Positions 1 through 62,084 of a DNA stretch of 64,000 bases are shown here, one piece after another. The stretch is from assembly GCF_965641715.1 (NCBI RefSeq), contig NZ_OZ282453.1; one strand, given 5' to 3'. The stretch is from Escherichia coli. GTDB lineage: Bacteria > Pseudomonadota > Gammaproteobacteria > Enterobacterales > Enterobacteriaceae. Position 1 is the first letter of the stretch, and each line of letters begins with the position of its first letter. The notes beneath the pieces were generated by a model. It saw only the letters and a program-made list of their open reading frames with translations, searched no databases and had not been told where the DNA came from. The translations under genes were made by a program, and so were the position numbers.

Positions 1-243
1 TTTTCAACATAAAGCTGGCGACACATAATGCGATGCCCACGACAGCGACGAGTTGCGTGACGGCTTGTAAAGGCCCCGCCTGGCGACGGGTCTGGCGCAG
101 ACGCAACAAAAGCAGCAACGCCATTAGCGGTAACAGCCAGTGCAGGCCGTTATGCGCTAAGCCAAACCAAATCACAAACGGCCAGGCGAGCAGCAATAAT
201 CCAGTCAGCAGCTTAATCATCGGTAGCGAGCGAATGCCCGACA
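1..243 (-). CDS. Membrane protein, C-terminally truncated by window edge (ATG at 243..241, reads MSGIRSLPMIKLLTGLLLLAWPFVIWF...); next gene after the tandem ACPs in the same operon
   Basis: Manual translation of minus strand; hydrophobic; starts 5 bp downstream of ACP stop; not in ORF track because it has no stop inside the window. Confidence 0.4.
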
Positions 244-248
244 TCAGA

Positions 249-500
249 TCAGGCTTCTTGTAGCAGGCGTTCTACAGCCTCGACGACATCCTGGACTGTA
301 CGCACGGCTTTAAACTCTTCCGGCTTGATTTTCTTACCGGTTTTCTTTTGCAGGTGCACAATCATGTCAACGGCGTCGATGCTGTCCAGTTCCAGATCTT
401 CGTACAGGCGCGCTTCAGGTTTGATGTCCTGCGGATCGATTTCAAACAGCTTAACCAGCAGGGCTGAGACTTCCTGATAGACGGTTTGTTGTTCTGTCAT
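249..500 (-). CDS. Acyl carrier protein (83 aa)
   Basis: ORF track; ACP-like size and LDSIDAVD phosphopantetheine-attachment motif. Confidence 0.8.
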   Translation of the reverse strand: MTEQQTVYQEVSALLVKLFEIDPQDIKPEARLYEDLELDSIDAVDMIVHLQKKTGKKIKPEEFKAVRTVQDVVEAVERLLQEA

Positions 501-511
501 GATGGCTTTCC

Positions 512-769
512 TCAGGCACGTTGCGCAGCAATGAAAGAGGCCAGAGTGGCGACGGAGAAAAAGTGCTGACGCATCTCTTCGCTTTCCGCAGAGAGCACGA
601 TGCCGTACTCATTTTTTACTGCCAGTCCCAGTTCCAGGGCATCGATAGAGTCCAGCCCTAAACCGTCGCCAAACAGCGGCGCGTCGGTATCGATATCATC
701 AGGCGTCAACTCGTCCAGATTGAGGGTGCTGATGATGAGGTTTTTAATTTCCAGATAAAGCGCTTGCAT
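512..769 (-). CDS. Acyl carrier protein (85 aa), tandem with the first
   Basis: ORF track; GLDSIDALEL serine motif typical of ACPs. Confidence 0.8.
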   Translation of the reverse strand: MQALYLEIKNLIISTLNLDELTPDDIDTDAPLFGDGLGLDSIDALELGLAVKNEYGIVLSAESEEMRQHFFSVATLASFIAAQRA

Positions 770-1565
770 TATTTATTCCTGAGAGAGGTAAACAACCTTG
801 TTGTAATTGAAGCAAAAGATGCCGGTTTAACTGCCTTGCTGCCAGCGCCGGTTCTTGTGAAGTTGCATCGTAAAATTTATTGATTTCAACCCGACCATGG
901 ACTGCAACCGTAAAAAACGGCCGGTCAGGTGGAACGTCATACCATTTACTTTGTTTATCCAGCAGATGCTCGCTACAGCCGATCGTCACGATGCGTAAAT
1001 CGCTGGCACAGCGCACGGCAATATTCGCCGCCCCGCGCTGCAGCGTCATTTTTTCACCGGGCTTCGTTCGCGTGCCTTCGGGGAAAATCAGGATAGTGTC
1101 ACCCTGTGCCAGTCGCTGTTGGCAGCGGGGTAACAGGGTTTCAGCTTCGCTGTTGATTAAATAATCTGCCGCCCGCACGACGCCGCCAAGAAAAGGATTT
1201 TTTAACAGCGCGCTTTTCACCAGGCAGTCAGTTTCTGGCATGACTGACGCCAGCAGCACGTAATCGATCAGCGTGGGATGATTGGCTACGACGAGGCAAC
1301 CGCGTTCCTGACGTAAAATTTCAGCGCCATCAATACGATAATCCAGCACGCCAAGCCCTTTCGCGACAGTTAAAAACAGGCGAAAACTGGCGGCAATGCT
1401 GCGACGCGCCAAACGACGGCGGCGGGAAGTATCCCACACCAAAACTAACAATATGTTAAACCACACGACAGAAAGCAGCAGGCCGCCGAGACCAAACAGG
1501 GCAAAACATAACCCGGTCATGACCAGTCGCCAGGTCCACTCCAGACGTGACATCAGCTTACTCAT
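744..1565 (-). CDS. Lysophospholipid (PlsC-type) acyltransferase
   Basis: ORF 744..1583; N-terminal TM segments; HX4D-type motif VVANHPTLIDYVLL; alternative ATG at 1565 gives an ATGA overlap with the upstream stop. Confidence 0.75.
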   Translation of the reverse strand: MSKLMSRLEWTWRLVMTGLCFALFGLGGLLLSVVWFNILLVLVWDTSRRRRLARRSIAASFRLFLTVAKGLGVLDYRIDGAEILRQERGCLVVANHPTLIDYVLLASVMPETDCLVKSALLKNPFLGGVVRAADYLINSEAETLLPRCQQRLAQGDTILIFPEGTRTKPGEKMTLQRGAANIAVRCASDLRIVTIGCSEHLLDKQSKWYDVPPDRPFFTVAVHGRVEINKFYDATSQEPALAARQLNRHLLLQLQQGCLPLSGINNASALSGN

Positions 1566-2308
1566 CTGTGGCTCCAGCGCCATTGCACGCGCTCGCCAGG
1601 CAGTGAAAATGTGTCTACATTTTGTAAATAGTGCTGTAAAAACAACATGCTTTGCGGCAGTGTTGTTTCATTGCCCGCAATGGCTGACTGCGTTTCACAT
1701 TGCCAGTCATCGCCAGCTTCAATCACCAGCGCGACGGCGTACGGCCAGGTCGGCATTTCTGCAGGCAGTTGTGGGTGATAAAACTCGGGCAGAAAACCGT
1801 CAAAATCGACCATCAGCACGCGCTGGTATCCCGCTTGTAACAGGCTAAGCACTTCACACAAACCTTGCTGGAAAGTGTCGCGACCAGCAGAAAGCGATGA
1901 CGAAACGATCGGCTGTTTGGCCGCAATGGTCAGGTTACCCACGGAAGAGTTGTGTACTGAAAGTGCAAAGTCGGTCGGAGAAAGCGCCTGTTCGGTTGCC
2001 AGTGCATGAACAATGCGGTAATTGCGCTCCAGTTCGCCATGACGACTGGTATACAAAACGGCGTCTGGCTGATGGCGGCGTAGCATTGCCAGACCGCATT
2101 CAACAGCCAGTTTGCTGCCTGAACTGAGGCGGCGGGCGGTCATCATTGGCAGTTCACTTAATTTTGCCAACGGCGCGGCAGGGTCAATCGCCCACGGCTG
2201 GCGCGACCATGCTTGCCATTGCTGCGCTTCGCTAAGTCCAGGCGCCAGTGCCTGCCAGTCGGTAATATTTAATGTAAATTTCATCAACGCGCGCCCGCGG
2301 TAAACCAA
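1562..2308 (-). CDS. Small ketosynthase-like protein, possible chain-length-factor-type subunit (248 aa)
   Basis: ORF track; size and operon position between a methyltransferase and acyltransferase/ACPs; domain call is by recollection of aryl-polyene clusters. Confidence 0.45.
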   Translation of the reverse strand: MVYRGRALMKFTLNITDWQALAPGLSEAQQWQAWSRQPWAIDPAAPLAKLSELPMMTARRLSSGSKLAVECGLAMLRRHQPDAVLYTSRHGELERNYRIVHALATEQALSPTDFALSVHNSSVGNLTIAAKQPIVSSSLSAGRDTFQQGLCEVLSLLQAGYQRVLMVDFDGFLPEFYHPQLPAEMPTWPYAVALVIEAGDDWQCETQSAIAGNETTLPQSMLFLQHYLQNVDTFSLPGERVQWRWSHR

Positions 2309-2324
2309 AATTATTAAGTGACGA

Positions 2325-3392
2325 TTATTTCTTTTGGCATATCAAAAGTGTATGCCCAACGCCTAAATTATCGTGGCGCTCTGCTACCTGGAATCCTGCT
2401 TTATTCAGATAGTCGTAAAATTTCTCTGCACTATAGAAACGGCTGTTACCGTTTGCCATGCAGGTAAAATAAAGTGAGGACGCGTTCAGGCTAAACGATG
2501 CTGCTTCAAACCGCTGCGCATCCCAGAACAACTCCATGATGCAAACTTTTGCGCCAGGCTTCATTACGCTGGCAATTTTGCTGAGTATGCTAATTATTTG
2601 TTCGGGTGAAAAACAGTCTAAAAATTGGCTCATCCACCAGATATCAGCCTCGCCCGGTAATGGGGCATCGCTTAGCATATCCACCGCATGGAAATCTATG
2701 CGATCAGAAAAACCTGCATTCGCGATATTTTCTTTCGCTAGTACGATTTGTTGTGGCAGATCTAATAACGTCACGGCGATGTTTTCATTGTATTTGCAGC
2801 AACGCAAAGCCCACTTACCCGTATTACCGCCTACATCGTACAATGTTGTGGGGTTGTTGGCGAATACATAAGGCAGTGCGGCGTTAAATGCGCCATCTGA
2901 ATAGTAATGATCAAACGCAAACCAGCTTTCACGAGCGGCGTCTGGTAATTGCGAAAGTGCCGGATATATCGTCGACCAGTCGCCAAATACTTTTAACCCG
3001 GAAGGTTTTCCTTCATTGAGTGAATCGGCGAGGAAGAAGAGCCCCTGGTAACAGACATCCTGGGTGAAATCCATATTCACGCGAGTCATAGTGTCATGCA
3101 GGAGGTAATGACCGATTTTCGCCAGGTAATAAATTCCCTCTTTACAGGTAATAATTCGCCCGCTTAAGCCCATATCTAACAGAACGCTGGCAGCATATTC
3201 GTTGATATGGCTATGTTCGGTGATATCAGCCAGCGTTGCGCCATGTTTGCCTTGCCGATCCAGATATGAAAGTACACCCGCATTACGTAGGCAGAGTGCT
3301 GTTTGAAAAAGCATAGGGGCAAAGGCAATGCGTTGAGCTTCGGTAATCGCATCCAGTGCGCTAAGAGAATCCTGTTCGTACATGTTGGGCAC
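2325..3392 (-). CDS. Class I SAM-dependent O-methyltransferase
   Basis: ORF track; glycine-rich SAM-binding motif LYDVGGNTGKWA and acidic LLDLP motif. Confidence 0.8.
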   Translation of the reverse strand: MPNMYEQDSLSALDAITEAQRIAFAPMLFQTALCLRNAGVLSYLDRQGKHGATLADITEHSHINEYAASVLLDMGLSGRIITCKEGIYYLAKIGHYLLHDTMTRVNMDFTQDVCYQGLFFLADSLNEGKPSGLKVFGDWSTIYPALSQLPDAARESWFAFDHYYSDGAFNAALPYVFANNPTTLYDVGGNTGKWALRCCKYNENIAVTLLDLPQQIVLAKENIANAGFSDRIDFHAVDMLSDAPLPGEADIWWMSQFLDCFSPEQIISILSKIASVMKPGAKVCIMELFWDAQRFEAASFSLNASSLYFTCMANGNSRFYSAEKFYDYLNKAGFQVAERHDNLGVGHTLLICQKK

Positions 3393-3451
3393 AACCTGTT
3401 AAGAGGGAATTAAATTATTATCGGACCGCAACGGCCCGACTTTAGGAAGAA

Positions 3452-3829
3452 TTATAAATCTGCGCCCGCTGACAAATTCAGTTGAATATCTTTGTCGAGA
3501 TTGCGGACCCAGCGATTGTAGTTTTTATGAATTTGTCCGCCTGACGCTTGTAGGTTCTGGCTATTTTCATAATTGATATCGTAGCTGGATGCCGTGTAGT
3601 TAATGCGTATTTCCGCTGAATGATCGCGTGACTGTTGACGTGCTTTAATTATGCCTTGTCCGGCTTCGGACATAATCCATTTGCGTTCAACGCCAGCTTT
3701 CAGAATCGCTTTTTTCACTTGTTCCTGGGTATGACCAGCGCTGACGGTTGAGTGAACCTGATCAATTGGCGCAGTACGCGCGCAACCTGCTAAAGCACCC
3801 ACAACAGCAATAGCCGCAAACCATTTCAT
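3452..3829 (-). CDS. Predicted lipoprotein of unknown function
   Basis: ORF 3452..3841; internal start MKWFAAIAVVGALAGC gives a signal peptide with lipobox LAGC. Confidence 0.55.
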   Translation of the reverse strand: MKWFAAIAVVGALAGCARTAPIDQVHSTVSAGHTQEQVKKAILKAGVERKWIMSEAGQGIIKARQQSRDHSAEIRINYTASSYDINYENSQNLQASGGQIHKNYNRWVRNLDKDIQLNLSAGADL

Positions 3830-4159
3830 GTAATGTCTCATTAGAACCCCATTAAAGTATTGTTTTTACGAGTAAAGCAAGATTTAACTGTAATTGCTGG
3901 CATCACTATTCTTTATTTAGAGAAAAAATTACTTGTGAGATAAGTCAGTAAGTGCACATCAGAGTAAAAATCTCTGAAATGACTAAATTACTGCCAGCAG
4001 GGACCAACTATAAGTGAGTGAGAAAAATGAGGCAATAAAAATAACACAATGTTATCAGTGCATTCTTTGAGAAGGATTTAATCGCTATTCGGCGTTTATA
4101 TATATTTGACTTAAGGAATGGTTTTTTTAAATTAATTTTCTGAATAATGTTTCATCATT

Positions 4160-4202
4160 TCCTCAAATCAAATGGCCACTGTTAGATAAACGGTGGCCAT
4201 TG
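4160..4202 (-). terminator. Hairpin (GGCCAC..GTGGCC) immediately downstream of yhhT
   Basis: Inverted repeat aatggccactgttagataaacggtggccatt read directly. Confidence 0.45.
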
Positions 4203-4220
4203 CCTGCTCAGGAGGTGCTA

Positions 4221-5270
4221 TTAACCCGGTAACCGACTTTTCGGTCTGCCCGGCCCCAGTAAAATCGCCAGTTTGCTACCGCCTTTGGTGGTTTCCATCC
4301 AGATTTTACACACGCTGGTTAATGGCACCGAAAGTAGCATCCCTACCGGGCCGAGCAGCCATCCCCAAATTAACAATGAAAGAAATACCACCATGGTGGA
4401 CATCCCCAGGCGATGGCCCATCATCCGTGGTTCTAAAATATTGCCGATAACCATATGGACAACTAAAAACAATGCGCCGACCAGAATACATTCGTAAACA
4501 CCATTAAACAGCAGCACCTGAATCATTGGCGGTACGGCGGAAATTACCGCGCCGATATTGGGCACGTAGTTGAGCAAAAACGCCAGTACTGCCCACATCA
4601 GCGCAAACTGCACCCCCATCAGCTCCAGCCCCAGCCAGACGATGACACCTGCCCATAAACTGAGTAGCGTCTTCAATGCAAGATAGTGCGAAACACCTTT
4701 TAAGGCGCGGTGTAGTCCGGCGATATGAATCTGTGGATTATCCAATGCAAAACGCATTTTGTAAGGGACGTGGCGCACTTCAAACAGCATAAAAACTACG
4801 GTCATCACCAGCAAAAGCACGCTCGCCATTGCCCCGGAAAGCCCGGTCATTAGCGCTGTGGTGAAGGTAACCACTTTTTCCGAGTCCATCCGCTGCAGCA
4901 TTCGCTCCGGCGACATATGCAAATTAAGAAAAGGCAACATCTCCTGCAATTTAAAAAGTTTGCGCGTCAGCTCCTTATTAAACTTCGGCAGCATAGAGAT
5001 AAATTCGTTAAACGATGCCGCCAGTACGCCGACCAGCGCGGTTAGTGTGATCAGCATCACCACCACCACAATCGTAATGGCAACGGGGCGTTTTACTCCC
5101 CGTCGAATAAACCAGGTAACGAGCGGGTTGAGGACGATGGCAAAAAACAGCGCCAGTAACAGCTGCACAATGATATCTGCCGCTGCGTGAATGCCCGCGA
5201 GGATCACTACCAGCGAGGCCAGCTTGAGCAGAATGTGCATGCCCGTTTTATCGGGTTGAGGGGTTTCCAT
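4221..5270 (-). CDS. yhhT: AI-2E/PerM-family membrane transporter
   Basis: ORF 4221..5351; start METPQPDKTG chosen to match the 349-aa K-12 protein. Confidence 0.9.
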   Translation of the reverse strand: METPQPDKTGMHILLKLASLVVILAGIHAAADIIVQLLLALFFAIVLNPLVTWFIRRGVKRPVAITIVVVVMLITLTALVGVLAASFNEFISMLPKFNKELTRKLFKLQEMLPFLNLHMSPERMLQRMDSEKVVTFTTALMTGLSGAMASVLLLVMTVVFMLFEVRHVPYKMRFALDNPQIHIAGLHRALKGVSHYLALKTLLSLWAGVIVWLGLELMGVQFALMWAVLAFLLNYVPNIGAVISAVPPMIQVLLFNGVYECILVGALFLVVHMVIGNILEPRMMGHRLGMSTMVVFLSLLIWGWLLGPVGMLLSVPLTSVCKIWMETTKGGSKLAILLGPGRPKSRLPG

Positions 5271-5401
5271 TGGGGCTTCCTTGTGACTTTTTGTATTAAG
5301 TGTAGCGGGAGTCACGCCAGCAATATTCTGATTCTTACTGCTGATTTTCACGTCAGCACGTGGTAAAAATGAAACACTGTTGTAAAAATGTGGTGATCCT
5401 C

Positions 5402-6619
5402 ATGCCCGAACCCGTAGCCGAACCCGCGCTAAACGGATTGCGCCTGAATTTGCGCATTGTCTCCATTGTCATGTTTAACTTCGCCAGCTACCTCACCATC
5501 GGGTTGCCGCTCGCTGTATTACCGGGCTATGTCCATGATGTGATGGGCTTTAGCGCTTTCTGGGCAGGATTGGTTATCAGCCTGCAATATTTTGCCACCT
5601 TGCTGAGCCGTCCTCATGCCGGACGTTACGCCGATTTGCTGGGCCCCAAAAAGATTGTCGTCTTCGGTTTATGCGGCTGCTTTTTGAGCGGTCTGGGATA
5701 TCTGACGGCAGGATTAACCGCCAGTCAGCCCGTCATCAGCCTGTTATTACTTTGCCTGGGACGCGTCATCCTTGGGATTGGGCAAAGTTTTGCCGGAACG
5801 GGATCGACCCTGTGGGGCGTTGGCGTGGTTGGCTCGCTGCATATCGGGCGGGTGATTTCGTGGAACGGCATTGTCACTTACGGGGCGATGGCGATGGGTG
5901 CGCCGTTAGGCGTCGTGTTTTATCACTGGGGCGGCTTGCAGGCGTTAGCGTTAATCATTATGGGCGTGGCGCTGGTGGCCATTTTGTTGGCGATCCCGCG
6001 TCCGACGGTAAAAGCCAGTAAAGGCAAACCGCTGCCGTTTCGCGCGGTGCTTGGGCGCGTCTGGCTGTACGGTATGGCGCTGGCGTTGGCTTCCGCCGGA
6101 TTTGGCGTCATCGCCACCTTTATCACGCTGTTTTATGACGCTAAAGGTTGGGACGGTGCGGCTTTCGCGCTGACGCTGTTTAGCTGTGCGTTTGTCGGTA
6201 CGCGTTTGTTATTCCCTAACGGCATTAACCGTATCGGCGGCTTAAACGTAGCGATGATTTGCTTTAGCGTTGAGATAATCGGCCTGCTACTGGTTGGCGT
6301 GGCGACTATGCCGTGGATGGCGAAAATCGGCGTCTTACTGGCGGGGGCCGGGTTTTCGCTGGTGTTCCCGGCATTGGGTGTAGTGGCGGTAAAAGCGGTT
6401 CCGCAGCAAAATCAGGGGGCGGCGCTGGCAACTTACACCGTATTTATGGATTTATCGCTTGGCGTGACTGGACCACTGGCTGGGCTGGTGATGAGCTGGG
6501 CGGGCGTACCGGTGATTTATCTGGCGGCGGCGGGACTGGTCGCAATCGCGTTATTACTGACGTGGCGATTAAAAAAACGGCCTCCGGAACACGTCCCTGA
6601 GGCCGCCTCATCATCTTAA
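5402..6619 (+). CDS. yhhS: MFS transporter
   Basis: ORF 5360..6619; start MPEPVAEP matches the 405-aa K-12 protein. Confidence 0.9.
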   Translation: MPEPVAEPALNGLRLNLRIVSIVMFNFASYLTIGLPLAVLPGYVHDVMGFSAFWAGLVISLQYFATLLSRPHAGRYADLLGPKKIVVFGLCGCFLSGLGYLTAGLTASQPVISLLLLCLGRVILGIGQSFAGTGSTLWGVGVVGSLHIGRVISWNGIVTYGAMAMGAPLGVVFYHWGGLQALALIIMGVALVAILLAIPRPTVKASKGKPLPFRAVLGRVWLYGMALALASAGFGVIATFITLFYDAKGWDGAAFALTLFSCAFVGTRLLFPNGINRIGGLNVAMICFSVEIIGLLLVGVATMPWMAKIGVLLAGAGFSLVFPALGVVAVKAVPQQNQGAALATYTVFMDLSLGVTGPLAGLVMSWAGVPVIYLAAAGLVAIALLLTWRLKKRPPEHVPEAASSS

Positions 6620-6622
6620 AAC

Positions 6623-7180
6623 TTACTGAATAACCAGCGTATTAATGATGTTTTCTGCGGTGGTCTGCGCTTTTTGCTGATCGTCAGCTGGCAGAGTAAT
6701 TTGCATGGTCAGCAGTTGATTACCCACGTTACCCAGAATAACGGAAGAGTACGCCGTCTGGCCTTTCGCGGAGATAATACTGTCTAACTGCTGCATTTTG
6801 TGACCTTTCAGCTCAATGGCTTTATTGGTTACCACTTGCAGCTGCGGATCGCGGCTACGTTGCTGATCTTCCAGACGCTTCGCCAGCACCGCCAGATCTT
6901 CTTTCGGATCATCGCCCATGATGACGATGACTGCTTTCTGCCCGGTGGCGTCGGACCAGACATGCATGTTATTGGCCTGCGTTCCCAGCTTACCGCTCTG
7001 GTCGGTCATATCCGCTGGCAGCGAGAAACTTAACTTGCCATCAAGCAGGTTGACGGGATTCCCGGTAGCGTTACTTTCCGCGACCGAACCCTGCGCCGTA
7101 GCGTTAGTGTCTTTATCATCACAGGCCGCAAGCCCCATAACCAGCAGGCCAATTCCGACATATTTAACCAGATTGCGCAT
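6623..7180 (-). CDS. dcrB: Periplasmic lipoprotein DcrB
   Basis: ORF 6623..7234; start [20 protein letters not shown] with lipobox. Confidence 0.9.
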
Positions 7181-32164: not shown

Positions 32165-32283
32165 CGCGTATCCTCCTCTGAAGATATTCTTTAAGTTTAC
32201 TCCTTTCCTGCAATCATCAGGATTAATTCAGAGTTATATACCAGGCTTAGCTGGGGTTGCCCCTTAATCTCTGGAGAATAACG

Positions 32284-34029
32284 ATGATAAAACCGACGTT
32301 TTTACGCCGGGTGGCCATTGCTGCTCTGTTCACAGGAAGTTGTTTTAGTACGGTAGCCGCGCCACCTGCGCCGTCTCCTGTTTCTTACGGCGTGGAGGAA
32401 GATGTCTTTCATCCGGTACGCGCGAAACAGGGGATGGTGGCATCTGTAGATGCTACTGCCACTCAGGTGGGGGTGGATATCCTCAAGGAGGGCGGGAATG
32501 CCGTTGATGCCGCCGTGGCTGTGGGCTACGCGCTGGCGGTAACGCATCCGCAGGCAGGGAATCTGGGCGGTGGTGGTTTTATGCTGATCCGCTCGAAAAA
32601 TGGCAATACCACCGCTATCGATTTCCGCGAAATGGCACCCGCCAAAGCGACCCGCGATATGTTCCTTGATGACCAGGGCAACCCGGACAGCAAAAAATCA
32701 CTCACTTCGCATCTGGCTTCCGGCACGCCCGGTACGGTCGCTGGTTTCTCGCTGGCGTTGGATAAATACGGCACAATGCCGTTGAACAAAGTGGTGCAGC
32801 CAGCGTTTAAACTGGCACGCGATGGTTTTATCGTTAACGACGCGCTGGCTGACGATCTCAAAACCTACGGGAGCGAAGTGCTGCCGAATCACGAAAACAG
32901 CAAGGCTATCTTCTGGAAAGAGGGCGAGCCGCTGAAAAAGGGCGACAAGCTGGTGCAGGCGAACCTGGCAAAGAGCCTGGAGATGATTGCCGAAAACGGC
33001 CCGGACGAATTCTACAAAGGCACGATAGCGGAACAGATTGCCCAGGAGATGCAGAAAAACGGTGGCCTGATCACTAAAGAAGATTTAGCGGCGTATAAAG
33101 CGGTCGAACGCACACCGATAAGCGGCGATTATCGCGGGTATCAGGTTTACTCTATGCCACCGCCATCTTCCGGTGGGATTCATATCGTGCAGATCCTCAA
33201 TATTCTGGAAAACTTCGATATGAAGAAATACGGCTTTGGCAGTGCCGATGCGATGCAAATCATGGCAGAGGCTGAGAAATACGCCTACGCCGACCGCTCG
33301 GAATATCTTGGCGACCCGGATTTTGTCAAAGTCCCGTGGCAGGCGCTGACCAATAAAGCCTATGCCAAATCTATTGCCGAGCAAATCGATATCAATAAAG
33401 CGAAACCGTCCAGCGAGATTCGCCCTGGCAAGCTTGCGCCTTATGAGAGTAATCAAACTACCCATTACTCAGTGGTGGATAAAGACGGTAACGCCGTGGC
33501 GGTGACCTATACGCTGAACACCACCTTCGGTACGGGTATTGTCGCGGGCGAGAGCGGTATTCTGCTTAATAACCAGATGGATGATTTCTCCGCCAAACCG
33601 GGCGTACCGAACGTTTACGGGCTGGTAGGCGGTGATGCCAACGCGGTCGGGCCGAATAAACGCCCGCTGTCGTCGATGTCACCAACCATTGTGGTGAAAG
33701 ACGGTAAAACCTGGCTGGTTACCGGTAGCCCTGGCGGGAGCCGGATTATTACCACCGTGCTGCAAATGGTGGTGAATAGCATCGATTATGGCATGAACGT
33801 CGCCGAAGCGACCAATGCGCCGCGTTTCCACCATCAGTGGTTGCCGGACGAGCTGCGTGTCGAAAAAGGGTTTAGCCCGGATACGCTCAAACTGCTGGAA
33901 GCAAAAGGTCAGAAAGTGGCGCTGAAAGAGGCGATGGGCAGTACACAAAGCATTATGGTTGGGCCGGACGGTGAGTTGTACGGCGCATCCGACCCGCGCT
34001 CGGTGGATGATTTAACGGCGGGGTACTAA
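32284..34029 (+). CDS. ggt: Gamma-glutamyltranspeptidase
   Basis: ORF 32257..34029; start MIKPTFLRR; 580 aa. Confidence 0.95.
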   Translation: MIKPTFLRRVAIAALFTGSCFSTVAAPPAPSPVSYGVEEDVFHPVRAKQGMVASVDATATQVGVDILKEGGNAVDAAVAVGYALAVTHPQAGNLGGGGFMLIRSKNGNTTAIDFREMAPAKATRDMFLDDQGNPDSKKSLTSHLASGTPGTVAGFSLALDKYGTMPLNKVVQPAFKLARDGFIVNDALADDLKTYGSEVLPNHENSKAIFWKEGEPLKKGDKLVQANLAKSLEMIAENGPDEFYKGTIAEQIAQEMQKNGGLITKEDLAAYKAVERTPISGDYRGYQVYSMPPPSSGGIHIVQILNILENFDMKKYGFGSADAMQIMAEAEKYAYADRSEYLGDPDFVKVPWQALTNKAYAKSIAEQIDINKAKPSSEIRPGKLAPYESNQTTHYSVVDKDGNAVAVTYTLNTTFGTGIVAGESGILLNNQMDDFSAKPGVPNVYGLVGGDANAVGPNKRPLSSMSPTIVVKDGKTWLVTGSPGGSRIITTVLQMVVNSIDYGMNVAEATNAPRFHHQWLPDELRVEKGFSPDTLKLLEAKGQKVALKEAMGSTQSIMVGPDGELYGASDPRSVDDLTAGY

Positions 34030-34066
34030 GGTTAGCGGCCCTCTTCGTGGGAAGAGGGCTATTTTG

Positions 34067-34351
34067 TCAGGGCAAGCCGAAGGTAGCCTTTTTTATTTCG
34101 TAATCCTGTAGATATTCTTCCAGCGGCTTTGCCGTTCCCAGAGAATGAATTTCACCACTGTCTTTATCAATAATAAAAGGTGCGTTACCAGCTAAGCGCG
34201 CGGCCTCATCTCCAGTTTCGAGAAATTCTCGTGCTTCGAAACAGAAATACCAGCCCTGGCTAAAGCGTCCATGTAGAGTAATGACGACCGGGAGATCTGC
34301 ATCATCAAGGTAATGGTTCGCTTTCGCGAATGCGTCGTGATAAGTAATCAT
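34067..34351 (-). CDS. yrhB: YrhB-family small protein (immunity-like)
   Basis: 94 aa; matches recalled K-12 YrhB. Confidence 0.8.
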   Translation of the reverse strand: MITYHDAFAKANHYLDDADLPVVITLHGRFSQGWYFCFEAREFLETGDEAARLAGNAPFIIDKDSGEIHSLGTAKPLEEYLQDYEIKKATFGLP

Positions 34352-34800
34352 AATTATAATAAATATTATTGTTGAATGTTATATTATTATTCCTGTGTGA
34401 TACATTGAGCAAAGGTGCATTCATCTTCGTCAAAGATATTATTAAATGCTGGTTTTGAAAAAAGTTCATCGGATAAGATATAGTCACGAAATAAGTATCT
34501 GCTAATATTTTGTGATTTCTTTTTCAGAACGTCGAACGGGATTTTCTTATTTAAGATATCAGAATCTTATGATTTGGGTAAAATTCTAAATAAATCAACA
34601 TGTCACTAAAATCATCATAGCCATTAGCTATTTCGGCTAAAATAGAGACTACATGTCTTCGGTCCATCTCACTTAAGGAGTGTAGTTCCGTTGTAAGTTT
34701 TTCCATAGCTTGCATTGCTAAATTTCGAACAAGGAATTTTCTGGTGGTAATCTCTAAAAAGATGGCATGGTTTACAATGATTTTTGTTTCCTTTTGATTA

Positions 34801-35295
34801 TTATGAACAACTATCCATGATTTCGTTTAAGAATGAAGAGAAATCACTAAACGAACTGAATATATTTTCTGTGCCAATATTATCTCTAATTTCAAAAAAG
34901 TTACTTTTAATGTCATAAGTAAATATTGAAATGCTATCATCCCCGATCACTAACCGTTCTTGTAGATCAGGGTTTATGAAATCATCATTATTTCTATAAA
35001 ATTCATTTACGGCAAAAAGGTTTTTAACTGAAGGTTCTGGAATCGAGAGGCTAAATAATCGCAATCCATTAACTTCGAATCCATCCATTGCTCTTAAAAA
35101 AGTAAGATAATCAGGTTGATTCTTAAAAAGAATACTAACTTCATTACATAACTTCTCCAGGCAATTAGTTGAATTAGAATTAAATTCTATTTGGATTATA
35201 CTTTCAATAAATGATTCCTTGAGCGGTGCTTCAAATGGATAGTCTAAATCATTCATCATTTTTATTAATTTGTTTATTTGGGTTTTAGTCATCAT
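34801..35295 (-). CDS. yrhA: Putative immunity protein for the upstream HNH toxin domain (YrhA-like), intact here
   Basis: 164 aa; start overlaps the toxin ORF stop by 4 bp; low-GC gene. Confidence 0.6.
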   Translation of the reverse strand: MMTKTQINKLIKMMNDLDYPFEAPLKESFIESIIQIEFNSNSTNCLEKLCNEVSILFKNQPDYLTFLRAMDGFEVNGLRLFSLSIPEPSVKNLFAVNEFYRNNDDFINPDLQERLVIGDDSISIFTYDIKSNFFEIRDNIGTENIFSSFSDFSSFLNEIMDSCS

Positions 35296-36470
35296 TTTGT
35301 GGGTTCCATAATATTTTTCATGGGAGGATAAATTGAGCCAGATGGAATGGCCCAGGGAGTGATTTTGCTTTCACCTACTAATATTCCCTTAGCTATTCGT
35401 GATTGCATGTTAGTAAAAACTTTATGATATGGTTCGTTTTCGATTAATACTAAATTTTCGAAATCATTAGTACCACCATCATCTAGAGATAGTTTATGGT
35501 GAACATTATAATTTAGAGGAACATAGCCCTTTCTCATTCTTAAAAGGTCTTCGGTGTTGAATCTTCCAGATGCTTCGGAGGTTTTTGCAAGTTTGATAAG
35601 AAAATTTTTTCTTACAGTTTTGTTAAACTCCTTTCGTAAGTTAGCTAAGTCTTTTGAAGGTCTCTTAATGTATATTATTTATATTATGTCTATGCCATCA
35701 AGAAGTTTTTGTTGATCTCTAAGTTTGCCTAAGTAACTATTTATTTCTGTATATGTATCAACTTTAGAACGCTTTGTTAAAAGAATAGATGCTGTTGCTA
35801 TCGCTATGCCCGCTGTTTTTTCATTTAGTATTTGATCATAGCCTTTGATTGCATCTCCACCCAGTTTTTCCGCAGTATCTCTGAATCCTTCAATGTTCCC
35901 ATTGTATACGCCACCAGCAGCAAGTAGCCTGCCAACAGCTTTGCTGTTTAACGTTTTGAAACGATTATTTGTTTGGTTTTTTGAATTTGGTAAAAACAAA
36001 CGGTTATAATTTTCAGGGAGTGCCAAATAGCTGAACTCGGTATTTGCGATAAGATGTTGACAGAGGATAAATTCATAACTAACAGTTATTGTTTCTGTAT
36101 CCAGTTGATTTTGAATGATCTGATGATGAATAGCCGATAAAAAAGCGCCTCTTAGTTGTGTATAATAATACTTTTCCCATCTACCAAATCTATTGATTCT
36201 ATAAAAGTCAAATTTCATAAATAATTGCTCATTATTGTTAATGGAATTAATAAGTAATGGAGTGCTTTTATCAATTAATTTACAAAATGTCATAGCCTGT
36301 AACTGTGAACCAAGCCCCGTATTAGTAATTCTATTTTCGAGTGAGAATGTAAATATTTCATTCTCATGCCCGCTCTGCCAGCGATTACCTATAGATTCAG
36401 TAGTCCCACAACCTGCGGAGATGCTTCCTTGTTGTTCTCCCGTTACTGTCAGATAAACAATATTACTCAT
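35292..36470 (-). pseudogene. yhhZ: Hcp-domain protein fused to a C-terminal HNH nuclease toxin (yhhZ-like), interrupted by one in-frame TAA at 35679..35681
   Basis: 263-aa ORF with Hcp-like N-terminus; same frame continues after the single stop through 47 codons into the 81-aa HNH ORF (NVHHKLSLDDGGTNDFENLVLIENEPYH); 392 codons in total. Confidence 0.65.
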
Positions 36471-36706
36471 CCCTGAAAAGTCCTTTTATGGCATGCTATT
36501 TTATCAATGGCACTATTATGCTTGTTAATTGTTATTTATTTACTCCAGGAAATTGTAGGCGTATATATTAAAAAATAAAATATTACACTTTAGGAAGTAA
36601 TTATGAGGTAAGTCTCAATATATTTATTGGGAAAATAAATACATTAAAGGAAGGTATGCCGATTTTGAATGACACCCTTTTTCCATCTCAGAAAAAGGGC
36701 ACTATT

Positions 36707-55160: not shown

Positions 55161-57626
<2,466 letters not shown>

Positions 57627-57642: not shown

Positions 57643-57670
57643 AACGGGGCCACAAGGTCCCGTTTTTTTT
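57643..57670 (+). terminator. Rho-independent terminator after glgP
   Basis: Hairpin acggggccacaaggtcccgt followed by TTTTTTTT. Confidence 0.7.
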
Positions 57671-57742
57671 CGCCTTTATTTCGGAAAAGTGTCCAGAGGG
57701 GGCGAGGGTTCTCGGGGAGTATAATTCCGTCATTCAGGAAGA

Positions 57743-59260
57743 ATGGACAGAATGATGCCAAATAGAAAATGGATTTTGACCTCGCTGATAATGACTTTTT
57801 TCGGCATCCCCATACTGGCGCAATTTTTGGCAGCGGTTGTTGCCATGCTGGGTGTCGGGCTTACCGGTATTATTGAAGTTTGTAATATCCTTATCACGCC
57901 AACAATTTATCTTCTACTCAACGTCTTTATGCTGACGCTGGGGGCGATAATAATATTTTTCTCTGGTCGCGTGTGGGCCGGTGATAGCGCGCCAGAAAAC
58001 AGAGAAATAGCCGTCTGGCGGCAATGCTTTTTTCTCTTACCCGCGCTATTAACCTTGGTTGGCTGGATAATCACGCTACATCTGGCAGATTATCAATTTC
58101 GCCAGATGGGAGCTGGTTGGTTGGCAAACCTTATGCTTCCCTGGTTGGGCGTTTTTTTAGTCTCATTAGTGGGTGGTGAGTACTGGTGGATGGTCATTAT
58201 TCCCGTTGGGGCGCATATCAGTTTTTCGCTGGGATACGCCTGGCCGACCAGATATCCTTTATCCGGCACGTCCGGACTACGTTGCCGTAACTTACTCCTG
58301 TTTCTACTTATCTTACTTGGTATTGTCGCCGGGTATCAGGCCCATTTATATAAGCAGCAAAATCCTGGTGTCGGTGTACGCGAAAATATTGATATCTGGG
58401 CCTGGCGACCCGATAAACTCAATAATCGACTGACGCCGCTGCGTGGCAAACCGCAAATTCAGTTTAGGCAAAACTGGCCGCGAATCGATGGCGCCACGGC
58501 TGCGTACCCAATTTATGCTTCTGCATTTTATGCATTAAGTGTAATACCAGAGGATTTTCACGTTTGGGATTATCTGGAAAACTCTCGTACGCCAGAAGCA
58601 TATAACAAAATCGTTAAGGGCGATGCTGATATTATTTTCGTGGCGCAACCTTCCGGTGGGCAAAAAAAACGTGCAAAGGAATCTGGTGTCACTTTGGTGT
58701 ACACCCCCTTTGCCCGTGAAGCATTCGTTTTCATCGTCAATGCGGATAATCCGGTTAATTCCCTGACTGAACAACAGGTGCGTGACATTTTCAGTGGTGC
58801 AATTACCAATTGGCGTACTGTTGGCGGTAACGATCAGGAGATCCAGACCTGGCAGCGCCCGGAAGACTCTGGCAGCCAGACAGTGATGCAATCACAGGTC
58901 ATGAAAAATGTCCGCATGATCTCGCCGCAGGAAACGGAAGTGGCAAGCGTGATGGAGGGAATGATTAAAGTCGTTGCCGAATACCGTAATACAAACAACG
59001 CAATAGGCTATACCTTCCGCTATTACGCGACGCAAATGAATGCCGATAAAAATATAAAACTGCTAGCGATTAACGGTATTGCACCGACTGCGGAAAATAT
59101 TCGCAATGGCAAATATGCGTACATCGTCGATGCATTTATGGTGACGAGAGAAAATACAACGTCAGAAACACAAAAACTGGTCGAATGGTTTTTAACGCCG
59201 CAGGGGCAGAGTCTGGTAGAAGATGTGGGATATGTGCCGCTGTATCCAACAATGGAATAA
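57743..59260 (+). CDS. Polytopic membrane domain fused to PstS-like periplasmic binding domain (505 aa)
   Basis: N-terminal ~200 aa with several hydrophobic segments; C-terminal ~300 aa paralogous to the next gene. Confidence 0.7.
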   Translation: MDRMMPNRKWILTSLIMTFFGIPILAQFLAAVVAMLGVGLTGIIEVCNILITPTIYLLLNVFMLTLGAIIIFFSGRVWAGDSAPENREIAVWRQCFFLLPALLTLVGWIITLHLADYQFRQMGAGWLANLMLPWLGVFLVSLVGGEYWWMVIIPVGAHISFSLGYAWPTRYPLSGTSGLRCRNLLLFLLILLGIVAGYQAHLYKQQNPGVGVRENIDIWAWRPDKLNNRLTPLRGKPQIQFRQNWPRIDGATAAYPIYASAFYALSVIPEDFHVWDYLENSRTPEAYNKIVKGDADIIFVAQPSGGQKKRAKESGVTLVYTPFAREAFVFIVNADNPVNSLTEQQVRDIFSGAITNWRTVGGNDQEIQTWQRPEDSGSQTVMQSQVMKNVRMISPQETEVASVMEGMIKVVAEYRNTNNAIGYTFRYYATQMNADKNIKLLAINGIAPTAENIRNGKYAYIVDAFMVTRENTTSETQKLVEWFLTPQGQSLVEDVGYVPLYPTME

Positions 59261-59285: not shown

Positions 59286-60278
59286 ATGAATAAATTCACC
59301 GGTGTTTTACTATTAGGCACGGCGTTACTGGCGGGATGTGTCGACCGGGAAGGGTACTATAACAGCGTCAGGGAAGAAGAGAGCCATGGACTGACGTCTC
59401 TGCGGGGGCAACCTGCATTACGTTACAGCGATGATTGGTCAAGATGGCCGAGAGTGTACGGCGCTACAGCCTTATACCCGCTGTATGCCTCCGCGTATTA
59501 TAAATTAGTACCCGAGCCAAAAGATAAGGATCGAACCTCGCTGGCCTGGCAGGCGTATGGTTTGCAGCAAACCCGAACAGCTGAAGCCTACGATAGTCTG
59601 ATTAAAGGTTCCGCGACGGTTATTTTTGTTGCACAACCGTCGGAAGGACAGAAAAAACGTGCAGAAGAAGCGGGTGTTAAACTGAAATATACCGCTTTCG
59701 CCCGCGAAGCCTTTGTCTTTATCGTTGATATTAATAACCCGGTAAATTCTCTCTCTGAGCACCAGGTTAAAGATATTTTTAGCGGCAAAACTAGCCGCTG
59801 GAATAAAGTAGGTGGTAGTGACGAACATATAAAAGTCTGGCAGCGCCCTGAAGATTCTGGAAGCCAAACGATTATGAAGGGATTGGTTATGCAAGACACC
59901 CCAATGCTGCCAGCTAAAAAATCCACTGTGATTGATCTTATGGGCGGTTTAATTACTGAAGTTGCCGACTATCAAAACACGCCATCTTCCATTGGGTACA
60001 CCTTCCACTATTACGTCACTCGTATGAATGACAATATGCTCAAAATGCGCAAGCAGATTAAACTTTTGGCTATAAATGGCGTTGCGCCTACCGAGGAAAA
60101 TATCCGCAACGGCACTTATCCATACATTGTGGATGCCTATATGGTGACGCGTGAAAATCCCACGCCGGAAACGCAGAAATTTGTTGACTGGTTTATAAGT
60201 CAGCAGGGGCAACAGTTGGTAGAGGATGTGGGGTATGTGCCGCTGTATGAAGCATCCCCCGAATCATCAGGACAATAA
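59286..60278 (+). CDS. PstS-like periplasmic binding-protein lipoprotein (about 330 aa)
   Basis: ORF 59223..60278; start MNKFTGVLLLGTALLAGC (lipobox); about 60% identical to the C-terminal domain of the upstream gene. Confidence 0.7.
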   Translation: MNKFTGVLLLGTALLAGCVDREGYYNSVREEESHGLTSLRGQPALRYSDDWSRWPRVYGATALYPLYASAYYKLVPEPKDKDRTSLAWQAYGLQQTRTAEAYDSLIKGSATVIFVAQPSEGQKKRAEEAGVKLKYTAFAREAFVFIVDINNPVNSLSEHQVKDIFSGKTSRWNKVGGSDEHIKVWQRPEDSGSQTIMKGLVMQDTPMLPAKKSTVIDLMGGLITEVADYQNTPSSIGYTFHYYVTRMNDNMLKMRKQIKLLAINGVAPTEENIRNGTYPYIVDAYMVTRENPTPETQKFVDWFISQQGQQLVEDVGYVPLYEASPESSGQ

Positions 60279-60402
60279 TGATGAATATAATCAGACTTTA
60301 TATTTATCCGTTATTTCTCGGCTTTGTTATTGTGCCGTTGTTGGTGTGGCCGATGGTGGTTGCGCTGGCTGCTTGTATTATCGTTGACAAAGTGCACTTT
60401 GT

Positions 60403-60437
60403 TCATGCCTGATGCGGCGTGAACGCCTTATCAGGCC
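60403..60437. repeat. REP element
   Basis: gcctgatgcggcgtgaacgccttatcaggcctac. Confidence 0.7.
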
Positions 60438-60547
60438 TACAAAATCATGCAAATTCAATATATTGCATAAACCACGCATCAGGCAATTTTGTGTTTGTCA
60501 TCAGTCTCAGGCCAGATTGAAATCTGACCTGATCACCTTACGTTAAT

Positions 60548-62053
60548 TTATGACGCCAGCGACAACTTCTGCTGCGTATATTCCACCAGCCACTGACTCA
60601 CACGAGATTGTTGATCCGCATTCAGCCACATGCCTTGTTTTGTGCGACGCCACAGGGCATCGTCGGCGCGGCGGACCCATTCGTGATCCACCAGGTATTT
60701 CAGTTCCGCTTCGTAGAACTCATGACCGAAATCCTCCCCGAGGTCGCTTATCGCCCCCGCATTGCCGAGCAGCAGCTCGCTGTTGCTGCCGTAAGTGCGT
60801 GCGTAATGACGCGCCAGCGATTCAGTCAGGAATGGATAGCGACGGCGCAGACGAGCGGCATAATCGTCGCGGTCGCCTTCAATGGCACCACCCGGTAGCA
60901 CGCTCTCTTTCGTCCACGCCGGGCCAATACCCTGATAATACGGCGTCAGTTTTTCCAGCGCATGTTCCGCCAGTTTGCGGTAGGTGGTCAGCTTACCGCC
61001 GAATACCGACAGCAGCGGTGCTTTGCCATTTTCATCATGAATATCAAGGGTGTAATCACGGGTAATAGCCTGCGGCGAGTCGGACTCATCATCACACAGC
61101 GGACGCACACCGGAGTAGGTCCAGACGATATCGTCACGGCTTAACTGCTTTTTAAAGTGCGTGTTATACACTTTCAGCAGGTAATTGATTTCACTCTCTT
61201 CAATCTTCACTGCTTTCGGATCACCTTTGTATTCCACATCGGTGGTGCCGATGATGGAAAACTCGTCCATCCACGGGATCACGAACACAATGCGTTTATC
61301 TTCGTTTTGCAGAATGTAGGCCTGCTTTTGGGTATGCACGCGCGGCACCACAATATGGCTGCCTTTGATCAGGCGAATGCCATAAGGCGAAGGCAGATGC
61401 ATCCCGTCGTCGAAGAACTGTTTCACCCACGGGCCGGTGGCGTTAACCAGGCCGCGCGCTTGCCAGCTATATTTTTTGCCGGTATCGATATCTTCCGCTT
61501 CCACAATCCACAGGCCGTTTTCGCGGCGAGCAGAGGTGGCGCGAGTCCGAGTAAGCACTTCGCCGCCTTTACGCACCACCATCTGGGCGTTGGCGAGTAC
61601 CAGACGGGCGTCGTCTACCCAACAGTCAGAATATTCGAATCCGCGCTTAATTTCCGGTTTTAACACTGAATTTGCGCCAAAACGCAAACCAGTTGATCCC
61701 GGCAGGCTGGTGCGTTTACCCAGATGATCGTACATAAACAGACCAATGCGAATCATCCACGCCGGGCGCAGATGCGGACGATGTGGCAGGCGAAAACGCA
61801 TCGGGAAGGCGATATGCGGGGCCATTTTCAGCAGCACTTCACGTTCAGCCAGCGCCTCGCTGACCAGGCGGAATTCATAGTGCTCAAGGTAGCGCAGGCC
61901 ACCGTGAATGAGTTTTGAACTGGCGGAAGAGGTCGCGCAAGCGAGATCCTGCGCCTCCAGCATCAGCACGGATAAACCGCGTCCAGCGGCGTCTGCCGCG
62001 ATACCAGCACCATTGATGCCGCCCCCTATCACAATCAGATCTTTGGTTTCCAT
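60548..62053 (-). CDS. glpD: Aerobic glycerol-3-phosphate dehydrogenase
   Basis: ORF 60548..62068; start METKDLIVIGGGINGAG (FAD-binding) gives 501 aa. Confidence 0.97.
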   Translation of the reverse strand: METKDLIVIGGGINGAGIAADAAGRGLSVLMLEAQDLACATSSASSKLIHGGLRYLEHYEFRLVSEALAEREVLLKMAPHIAFPMRFRLPHRPHLRPAWMIRIGLFMYDHLGKRTSLPGSTGLRFGANSVLKPEIKRGFEYSDCWVDDARLVLANAQMVVRKGGEVLTRTRATSARRENGLWIVEAEDIDTGKKYSWQARGLVNATGPWVKQFFDDGMHLPSPYGIRLIKGSHIVVPRVHTQKQAYILQNEDKRIVFVIPWMDEFSIIGTTDVEYKGDPKAVKIEESEINYLLKVYNTHFKKQLSRDDIVWTYSGVRPLCDDESDSPQAITRDYTLDIHDENGKAPLLSVFGGKLTTYRKLAEHALEKLTPYYQGIGPAWTKESVLPGGAIEGDRDDYAARLRRRYPFLTESLARHYARTYGSNSELLLGNAGAISDLGEDFGHEFYEAELKYLVDHEWVRRADDALWRRTKQGMWLNADQQSRVSQWLVEYTQQKLSLAS

Positions 62054-62084
62054 GCTGCCCTCATTCACTTTCGTTAAAGCTCAT

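Follow-up and report, generated by a model that had tools for sequence, protein, structure and literature searches.

How does a binding protein work when it is fused to a polytopic membrane domain of its own? The question is raised by a locus of the Escherichia coli chromosome, studied here within a window of 64,000 nucleotides (the whole stretch analysed; contig NZ_OZ282453.1 of RefSeq assembly GCF_965641715.1), in which the gene order glgA-glgP-[gene 1]-[gene 2]-glpD includes two genes that PGAP labels as "PstS family" proteins. Gene 1 encodes a membrane domain followed by a PstS-like binding domain, gene 2 encodes a lipoprotein paralogue of that binding domain, and a third gene, truncated in the window, belongs to a stand-alone homologue of the membrane domain. 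We tentatively favour, at a probability of roughly 0.4, that the gene 1 product captures its ligand as a self-contained unit, with the membrane domain serving as docking partner of the binding domain. The same 3-kb region is 99.5% identical in E. coli strain 100181, and the locus is also present in O157:H7 and BL21-AI.

The two-domain protein encoded by gene 1

The initial annotation had described gene 1 as about 200 N-terminal residues with several hydrophobic helices and a WW-containing segment, followed by a binding-protein domain. That description was borne out, with six predicted helices, the WW segment found as GGEYWW (residues 141–146) and the Pfam family PBP_like_2 (PF12849) spanning residues 247–485 at 104.4 bits, compared to a gathering threshold of 27. 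The open reading frame (ORF) from 57743 to 59260 on the plus strand is unbroken and counts 505 residues from its first ATG, while the RefSeq/PGAP start at 57752 gives 502 residues; homologues favour the latter start, and the 502-residue version is used for all numbering herein. Because the Shine-Dalgarno-like AGGAAG is found upstream, and because homologues begin with M(M)xNRKW as gene 1 does, the N-terminus of the protein can be regarded as real. Upon inspection of the sequence, no in-frame ATG, GTG or TTG was seen between residues 200 and 245, and there is therefore no alternative start at the boundary between the two domains.

Six membrane-length helices within residues 3–203 were predicted by hydropathy and by two AlphaFold2 models, in which DSSP assigned the helices to residues 3–44, 50–79, 84–111, 121–141, 146–166 and 174–203. 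When modelled alone, the membrane domain gave a compact bundle with a pLDDT of 91.7 and a pTM of 0.88, from just 29 sequences. Model confidence is lower around the beginning of the linker (pLDDT block means of 59 and 74 for residues 201–220, higher afterwards); beyond the linker, in which L227 is conserved among the homologues, the models show an alpha/beta domain. Neither sequence nor fold searches matched the membrane domain to any Pfam family or solved fold, and the known sensor or transducer family that the initial annotation had suggested looking for did not emerge from either type of search. Searches with the 29 N-domain sequences gave no family shared by two or more of them, every match fell below its curated cutoff and no BPD_transp_1 signature was found. 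In an alignment of 31 homologues the binding domain is highly conserved whereas the membrane domain diverges much more, its identity to that of gene 1 falling from 82% to 15% with the helix pattern kept; P20 is nonetheless invariant, and conservation reaches at least 90% at W105 and Q196. We also compared alleles within E. coli (window positions 57752–59257 versus comparison loci L013–L018 and L002) and found that the ratio of nonsynonymous to synonymous substitution rates (dN/dS) of the membrane domain is 0.16–0.34 among seven alleles, indicating purifying selection, with values for the binding domain of 0.05–0.16 in 20 of 21 allele pairs. The membrane domain is a constrained, folded unit, and the tethering of the binding domain is real and probably functional.

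The loop charges favour an orientation with the N-terminus inside and the C-terminus outside. Averaged across the family, the net charge is +1.6 for the N-terminus, +2.3 for loop 73–90 and +3.8 for loop 167–180, with net negative charges in loops 45–49, 112–122 and 142–146, a pattern in conflict with a simple topology of either six or seven helices. As judged from the sequences, the most likely arrangement has five crossings and one non-spanning helix-break-helix element at residues 121–141, which carries the LPW motif. Helices 1, 2, 3, 5 and 6 would be the ones that cross, since the positive-inside rule would otherwise be violated with the C-terminal domain outside, and the helix-break-helix would both enter and exit on the periplasmic side. 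The two cytoplasmic loops average merely 13–16 residues.

The binding domain shares with PstS and other PBP_like_2 proteins of the TIGR02136 type (such as 4GD5 from C. perfringens and 1TWY from V. cholerae) the type II fold, the PF12849 match, the motifs ITNW..VGG, R...SG(S/T) and IGY, and the Thr and Arg/Ser-Gly-Ser phosphate ligands. The top 42 Foldseek matches in the PDB were all phosphate-binding proteins, with E-values down to 6e-15 and target-normalised TM-scores of 0.76–0.79, at about 20% identity between the binding domain and the solved PstS structures. In contrast to PstS proteins, gene 1 and gene 2 (at 123.7 and 119.1 bits) do not reach the TIGR02136 cutoff of 206.6 bits; TIGR00975 matches gene 2 only, at 15.8 bits versus a cutoff of 205, and the match of gene 2 to PBP_like_2 gives 105.1 bits with the threshold at 27. 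A profile alignment to the phosphate-bound 4GD5 structure revealed that T249, R369 and S373-G374-S375 are retained, whereas GSTS has become GATA and the Ser-Arg of ASR has been replaced by A298-Q299, followed by an invariant P300-S301, so that AQP stands for ASR. A298 thereby occupies the Ser position, which we take to correspond to D56 in E. coli, with the roles of the residues presumed from PstS structures. The phosphate site, as read from these alignments, is partly retained, with its core kept and several canonical hydrogen-bond donors lost. That loss would alter the ligand specificity, and the ligand is probably a phosphate-like oxyanion or a phosphorylated compound rather than free phosphate bound with PstS-like specificity. 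The label "phosphate ABC transporter substrate-binding protein" is probably misleading for this protein. It also differs from PstS in being fused to a polytopic membrane domain, in never being found beside pstCAB and in having no Pho box; the Pho box CTGTCATAWAWCTGTCAY was not found anywhere in the window with up to three mismatches allowed.

Pairing of the two domains and their split form

Homologues of about 500 residues, with 98–100% coverage, were found in Escherichia, Klebsiella, Salmonella, Intestinirhabdus, Phytobacter, Budviciaceae, Limnobaculum and Rahnella, with more distant proteins of equal size in Propionibacteriaceae and in metagenomes. Both domains are kept in homologues from Enterobacterales, Clostridia, Actinomycetota and other groups. 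When searching 1.84 billion representative proteins with a profile of the membrane domain (alignment A2, matched by gene 1 itself at 207.6 bits and an E-value of 2e-62), just 198 clusters were retrieved. All of the newly fetched matches of at least 450 residues carry the binding domain, and those without it are at most 300 residues long, except for one protein of 1286 residues that was matched in ten short stretches. In the sequences at hand, the membrane domain occurs only together with this clade of binding domains. A scan of one genome per species with two motifs of the binding domain gave more than 580 loci, spread over Proteobacteria, Campylobacterota, Bacillota, Actinomycetota, Spirochaetes, Planctomycetes, Synergistetes and Bacteroidia. 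Of 83 complete ORFs at the best 80 of these loci, 75 encode three or more hydrophobic segments ahead of the binding domain; 32 of these match the hidden Markov model of the long N-terminal domain, four are long but too divergent to do so, and 39 have a short form with three helices, mostly in Bacillales. The Bacillales proteins, seen at many loci (L050–L104), are about 380–400 residues in length and have the three N-terminal helices only. The lipoprotein form is the exception, found mainly in Enterobacteriaceae. The dedicated membrane domain, its phylum-wide pairing with the binding-domain clade and the split form that is considered below all appear to be undescribed so far; the sequences themselves can be found in all databases, with a generic and probably misleading name.

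Gene 2, which starts at 59286 after the Shine-Dalgarno sequence GAAAGGAA, agrees with its earlier description as a conventional lipoprotein with an LAGC lipobox: the signal peptide MNKFTGVLLLGTALLAGC fits the pattern [LVI][ASTVI][GAS]C with the Cys as residue 18, and lipidation is predicted. From the linker onward the protein is 58% identical to the binding domain of gene 1. As for genes 1 and 2 being a pair, as the initial annotation had presented them, they are not an obligatory one, because, of 5426 E. coli genomes, 3346 contain a full-length gene 1 and 884 a full-length gene 2.

A 200-residue "hypothetical protein" is encoded after gene 2 in O157:H7 and many other E. coli, its start codon overlapping the gene 2 stop codon as TAATG. 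This protein, here called gene 3, is a stand-alone homologue of the membrane domain: the membrane-domain profile covers nearly its full length in hmmsearch, and hhalign aligned it to the membrane domain over 162 columns with a probability of 96.6% and an E-value of 6e-10. The two have in common a G-x-P-L-L motif in helix 1, GW-x-F/W-A-R-R after helix 2 and P-I/V-x-A/G-Q-L-G-F-x-L-G-Y-Y in helix 5. In the window, only the beginning of gene 3 persists, the rest having been lost through a 523-bp deletion relative to O157:H7 at about position 60382. The short ORF after gene 2 was also considered as the start of a third fusion gene, which was ruled out, as it is the remnant of the stand-alone membrane-domain gene. 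Database searches found stand-alone gene 3 solely in Escherichia, with matches in 3286 of 5426 complete E. coli genomes, covering at least 80% of the length in 2054. The complete Escherichia locus consequently reads [membrane domain-binding domain][lipoprotein binding domain][membrane domain alone], and that a gene for the membrane domain has been kept separately, next to a lipid-anchored binding domain, speaks for a role of the membrane domain beyond anchoring.

The variable islet between glgP and glpD

Clustering of the neighbouring ORFs at 80 loci (the best 80 species-representative loci of the more than 580) revealed no conserved permease, ATPase, kinase, chemoreceptor, cyclase or other partner family nearby; only generic ABC ATPases and response regulators recurred, at scattered positions. 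In none of the loci examined was pstCAB adjoining, and in the window the flanking genes are glgP and glpD. The gene has been inserted singly at unrelated sites, such as between glgP and glpD, between purB and phoP in Rahnella and, for a second Salmonella copy, between ruvC and ruvA, and in a wastewater organism it also lies between unrelated genes. The glgP-glpD gap is a variable islet in Enterobacteriaceae. In Salmonella the islet holds two tandem fusion genes together with small unknown genes; in E. coli it holds either the fusion gene, the lipoprotein gene and the stand-alone domain, or the fusion gene, two unrelated proteins that look cytoplasmic and the stand-alone domain; and on a metagenome contig one fusion gene is followed by two paralogues of lipoprotein size.

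The O157:H7 allele of gene 1 is 97.5% identical to that of the window. Among E. coli alleles of gene 1 the synonymous divergence (dS) is 0.2–0.6 (up to 0.64), to be compared with 0.03–0.2 in the adjacent glgP, which suggests old allelic lineages or import from other Escherichia. K-12 has at this locus the pseudogene yzgL (comparison locus L003, positions 2753–2974). This pseudogene aligns with gene 1 over the first 235 nt of that gene and with gene 3 over the last 60 nt, and it therefore looks like what a deletion left behind, with the homologous coding regions of the two membrane domains joined together. K-12 thus keeps no more than a remnant, whereas the window has intact copies of genes 1 and 2 and a truncated gene 3. 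From the gene numbering (ECs4269 being glpD) we infer that O-island 133 of O157:H7 is this same locus, and it probably holds the three-gene version of the system. With regard to published literature, we found no functional study of gene 1, gene 2 or yzgL, just microarray tables and a whole-island deletion screen in enterohaemorrhagic E. coli (EHEC), in which deletion of O-island 133 gave lower type III secretion (PMC3378721), a result repeated in a review (PMC10877973).

Several further variants of the islet and of the gene family were observed. In many E. coli, gene 2 is swapped for two unrelated Cys-rich genes encoding proteins of 236 and 255 residues with no signal peptide, for which no significant match was found in Pfam or PADLOC (DUF4286 remaining sub-threshold with an E-value of 0.099); a homologue of the 236-residue protein is found in the same islet in Salmonella. 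PADLOC gave no match for genes 1–3 or for the alternative cargo genes. No true plasmid copy was found, as the sole full-length 'plasmid' match was a 4.8-Mb record of chromosome size. A 21-kb contig of Salmonella enterica (DBHMGN010000006.1) carries a one-strand array of about 16 small unknown ORFs, including two of the lipoprotein paralogues, a 67-residue Ntox34 fragment, a HEAT-repeat protein and a DUF7674 protein, and resembles an orphan toxin/immunity array. A metagenome-assembled genome (MAG) of Helicobacteraceae has four tandem binding-domain genes on the same strand (comparison locus L044, positions 1–6888), the fourth after a gap of 1 kb, three of them with 5–6 hydrophobic segments and one with a single segment; arrays of paralogues accordingly occur outside Enterobacteriaceae too.

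The features of the locus are collected in Table 1. The hairpin and T-run past glgP are probably the glgP terminator, and because of this putative terminator gene 1 would be transcriptionally apart from glgP; the consensus scan did not list the hairpin. The same scan did not list the TATAAT hexamer, and no -35 hexamer was found paired with it. The palindrome gcctgatgcggcgtgaacgccttatcaggcctac was recognised by eye and is presumably a repetitive extragenic palindrome (REP), going by our familiarity with such elements in E. coli. Elsewhere in the window, positions 34000–36500 form a low-GC islet (GC 0.34) just past ggt (32257–34029), and its two ORFs listed in the table may be an Hcp-linked effector/immunity pair.

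Table 1. Positions of features in the 64,000-nucleotide window and, in the last row, in comparison loci.
Feature	Position	Strand	Description
glgP	55179–57626
Hairpin and T-run	57644–57670	+	GC-rich, immediately past glgP stop; acggggcc-acaa-ggtcccgt then tttttttt; found by eye
-10-like hexamer	57720–57725	+	Perfect TATAAT, by sequence inspection
Shine-Dalgarno-like AGGAAG	57736–57741	+	10 nt ahead of the ATG at 57752
Gene 1	57752–59260	+	502 residues; membrane domain and PstS-like binding domain in one protein
Membrane domain of gene 1	57752–58366	+	Residues 1–205; N-terminal, polytopic, six predicted helices
Linker of gene 1	58367–58471	+	Residues 206–240; low model confidence; ends in conserved LTPL...NWPR lead-in to the binding domain
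Binding domain of gene 1	58472–59257	+	Residues 241–502; periplasmic PstS-like type II domain; DGATAAYP, VAQPS, QRPEDSGSQT, IGYTFRYY
Gene 2	59286–60278	+	330-residue lipoprotein paralogue of the binding domain; LAGC lipobox, Cys18 then Val
Gene 3 remnant	60278–60412	+	44 codons; start overlaps gene 2 stop (TAATG); PGAP partial hypothetical protein
REP-like palindrome	60405–60470		Between gene 3 remnant and glpD end
glpD	60548–62068	-
164-residue ORF	34801–35295	-	No assigned family
263-residue ORF	35679–36470	-	Hcp (type VI secretion) domain and extra C-terminal sequence
Genes replacing gene 2	L017 5034–6514; L002 4863–5630; L004 11052–11756		In comparison loci

Possible modes of action

In the explanation that we favour, gene 1 would encode an autonomous inner-membrane protein, in which a linker of about 35 residues connects the membrane domain of about 200 residues to the periplasmic PstS-like domain. 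The binding domain would capture a phosphate-like oxyanion or phosphorylated ligand and, once loaded, would adopt a closed form and dock against the periplasmic side of the helix bundle, on which the conserved P20, W105, LPW130-131 and Q196 are predicted to lie. From there, the bundle would either move the ligand into or through the membrane or undergo a change of state itself. Gene 2 and the stand-alone membrane-domain gene of other strains would constitute a split form of the same device. This explanation is preferred because the pairing is exclusive, a split form exists, the membrane domain is confidently folded and under purifying selection, and a gene that moves alone needs to encode an autonomous function.

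A number of observations speak against it. Compared with the binding domain, the membrane domain evolves at two to three times the rate, and few of its polar residues are conserved. Its role as anchor seems interchangeable, as there are binding domains that carry no more than a plain lipoprotein anchor, and in Salmonella there are lipoprotein copies with no membrane-domain gene adjoining, so that covalent or adjacent pairing is not obligatory. A Val after the lipobox Cys predicts outer-membrane sorting according to the +2 rule, which makes docking of the gene 2 product on an inner-membrane partner awkward. The short Bacillales form aligns only weakly to helices 4–6 of the long domain (hhalign probability 66%), and we do not claim that it is homologous to the C-terminal half of that domain. 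A topology with six crossings, finally, may be compatible with the six predicted helices, all being of membrane length in the models.

Comparison with known systems gives partial likenesses. The ABC importers GlnPQ and OpuA have permeases with fused binding domains, and as in these the binding domain of gene 1 is covalently tethered to a polytopic domain on the outer side of the membrane. Gene 1 differs, however, in lacking BPD_transp_1 or any other Pfam match in the membrane domain, in having no linked ATPase gene and in placing its binding domain C-terminally to a bundle of just about 200 residues. In the TRAP system DctPQM and the TTT system TctABC, a binding protein works with non-ABC membrane proteins, including small membrane subunits of 4–5 helices, and the likeness to gene 1 would lie in these two points. 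LtaS, EptA and PbgA/YejM are encoded by stand-alone genes and have about five N-terminal helices, followed by a periplasmic domain acting on phosphate-containing groups. Gene 1 has the same layout of N-terminal helices and a periplasmic globular domain, and likewise stands alone, but their periplasmic domain has a sulfatase-like hydrolase fold in place of the binding-protein fold, and neither sequence nor structural similarity to gene 1 was detected. A further-reaching proposal, to which we would give a small chance, is that of a new class of binding-domain-dependent membrane device operating without ABC, TRAP or TTT components, being either an oligomeric secondary transporter or a ligand-gated channel. 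Such a device would use a phosphate-bearing ligand and would exist in fused and split forms in both Gram-negative and Gram-positive phyla, a proposal that we hold with equal reserve. For the channel alternative a model is provided by GluR0, in which a pore with a re-entrant loop is coupled to a domain of binding-protein fold.

The rival that survives best, although we find it doubtful, is that the membrane region is a passive tether that just holds a phosphate-scavenging protein at the membrane, where it would feed PstCAB or another importer, or concentrate phosphate. The interchangeability of polytopic, three-helix and lipoprotein anchors among the paralogues is in line with this, as are the higher dN/dS of the membrane domain, the PstS fold with its partly kept phosphate site and the PGAP name. 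A passive role makes it hard to explain, however, why a multi-helix anchor with a confident, compact fold is found across phyla, and why a gene for the membrane domain alone has been retained next to the lipoprotein form. Docking on PstCA of E. coli also seems unlikely, because the proteins score far below the PstS cutoffs (124 versus 207 bits) and are only about 20% identical to solved PstS, and the absence of pstCAB near any of the loci and of a Pho box in the window likewise stands against this rival.

An unlikely alternative is a tethered sensor or co-receptor, which would signal ligand occupancy through its membrane helices to a kinase, a chemoreceptor or another membrane protein encoded by a separate gene. 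Binding proteins do activate chemoreceptors and kinases, a precedent being PstS with CtpL (review PMC8050422), and the reduced type III secretion in EHEC upon deletion of O-island 133 (PMC3378721) is the only regulatory hint. That result, however, came from deletion of a whole island in a screen, next to glpD and glgP. Moreover, there is no cytoplasmic domain, the cytoplasmic loops averaging at most 16 residues, the membrane domain is unlike known sensor modules in both sequence and fold, and no signalling gene is conserved adjacent in the 80 loci; the Rahnella copy beside phoPQ is a single case. The initial annotation had proposed a tethered sensor or receptor rather than a free periplasmic binding protein; of this, the membrane tether stands, but an output domain, a sensor family or a signalling neighbour that would support the sensor part was not found.

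Distinctly improbable, in our view, is an immunity or protective protein that would shield the periplasmic face of the membrane from a phosphate-carrying or phosphate-targeting toxin or antibiotic, and that diversifies in variable islets. The tandem arrays of paralogues (two in Salmonella, three on the metagenome contig and four in the Helicobacteraceae MAG) would agree with such a role, as would the allelic dS far above that of glgP, the frequent pseudogenisation of the gene, the lipoprotein copies that share a Salmonella array with an Ntox34 fragment and a HEAT-repeat protein, and the alternative cargo genes occupying the E. coli locus. Against it, there is strong conservation of the binding domain from phylum to phylum, its dN/dS being about 0.1 and its ligand-site motif kept; most of the 80 loci are single-copy with no toxin neighbour; and there was neither a match in the PADLOC library nor a copy on plasmids.

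An annotation artefact, with a mis-called start or a frameshift joining two genes, has next to no chance of being the explanation, as the 500-residue architecture recurs in hundreds of independent genomes, with the membrane domain present in homologues of many genera, the MMxNRKW N-terminus conserved, no in-frame start at the domain boundary and the membrane part under purifying selection.

The partners through which binding proteins are thought to act are transporters of the ABC, TRAP or TTT type and receptors that have output domains. The clade of binding domains studied here is present in hundreds of species, and about nine in ten of the sampled copies are joined to a private membrane domain, with the known types of partner being absent. 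Should that membrane domain be what the binding domain works with, as our favoured explanation of a self-contained capture unit would have it, the arrangement would amount to a fourth mode in which binding proteins are used.

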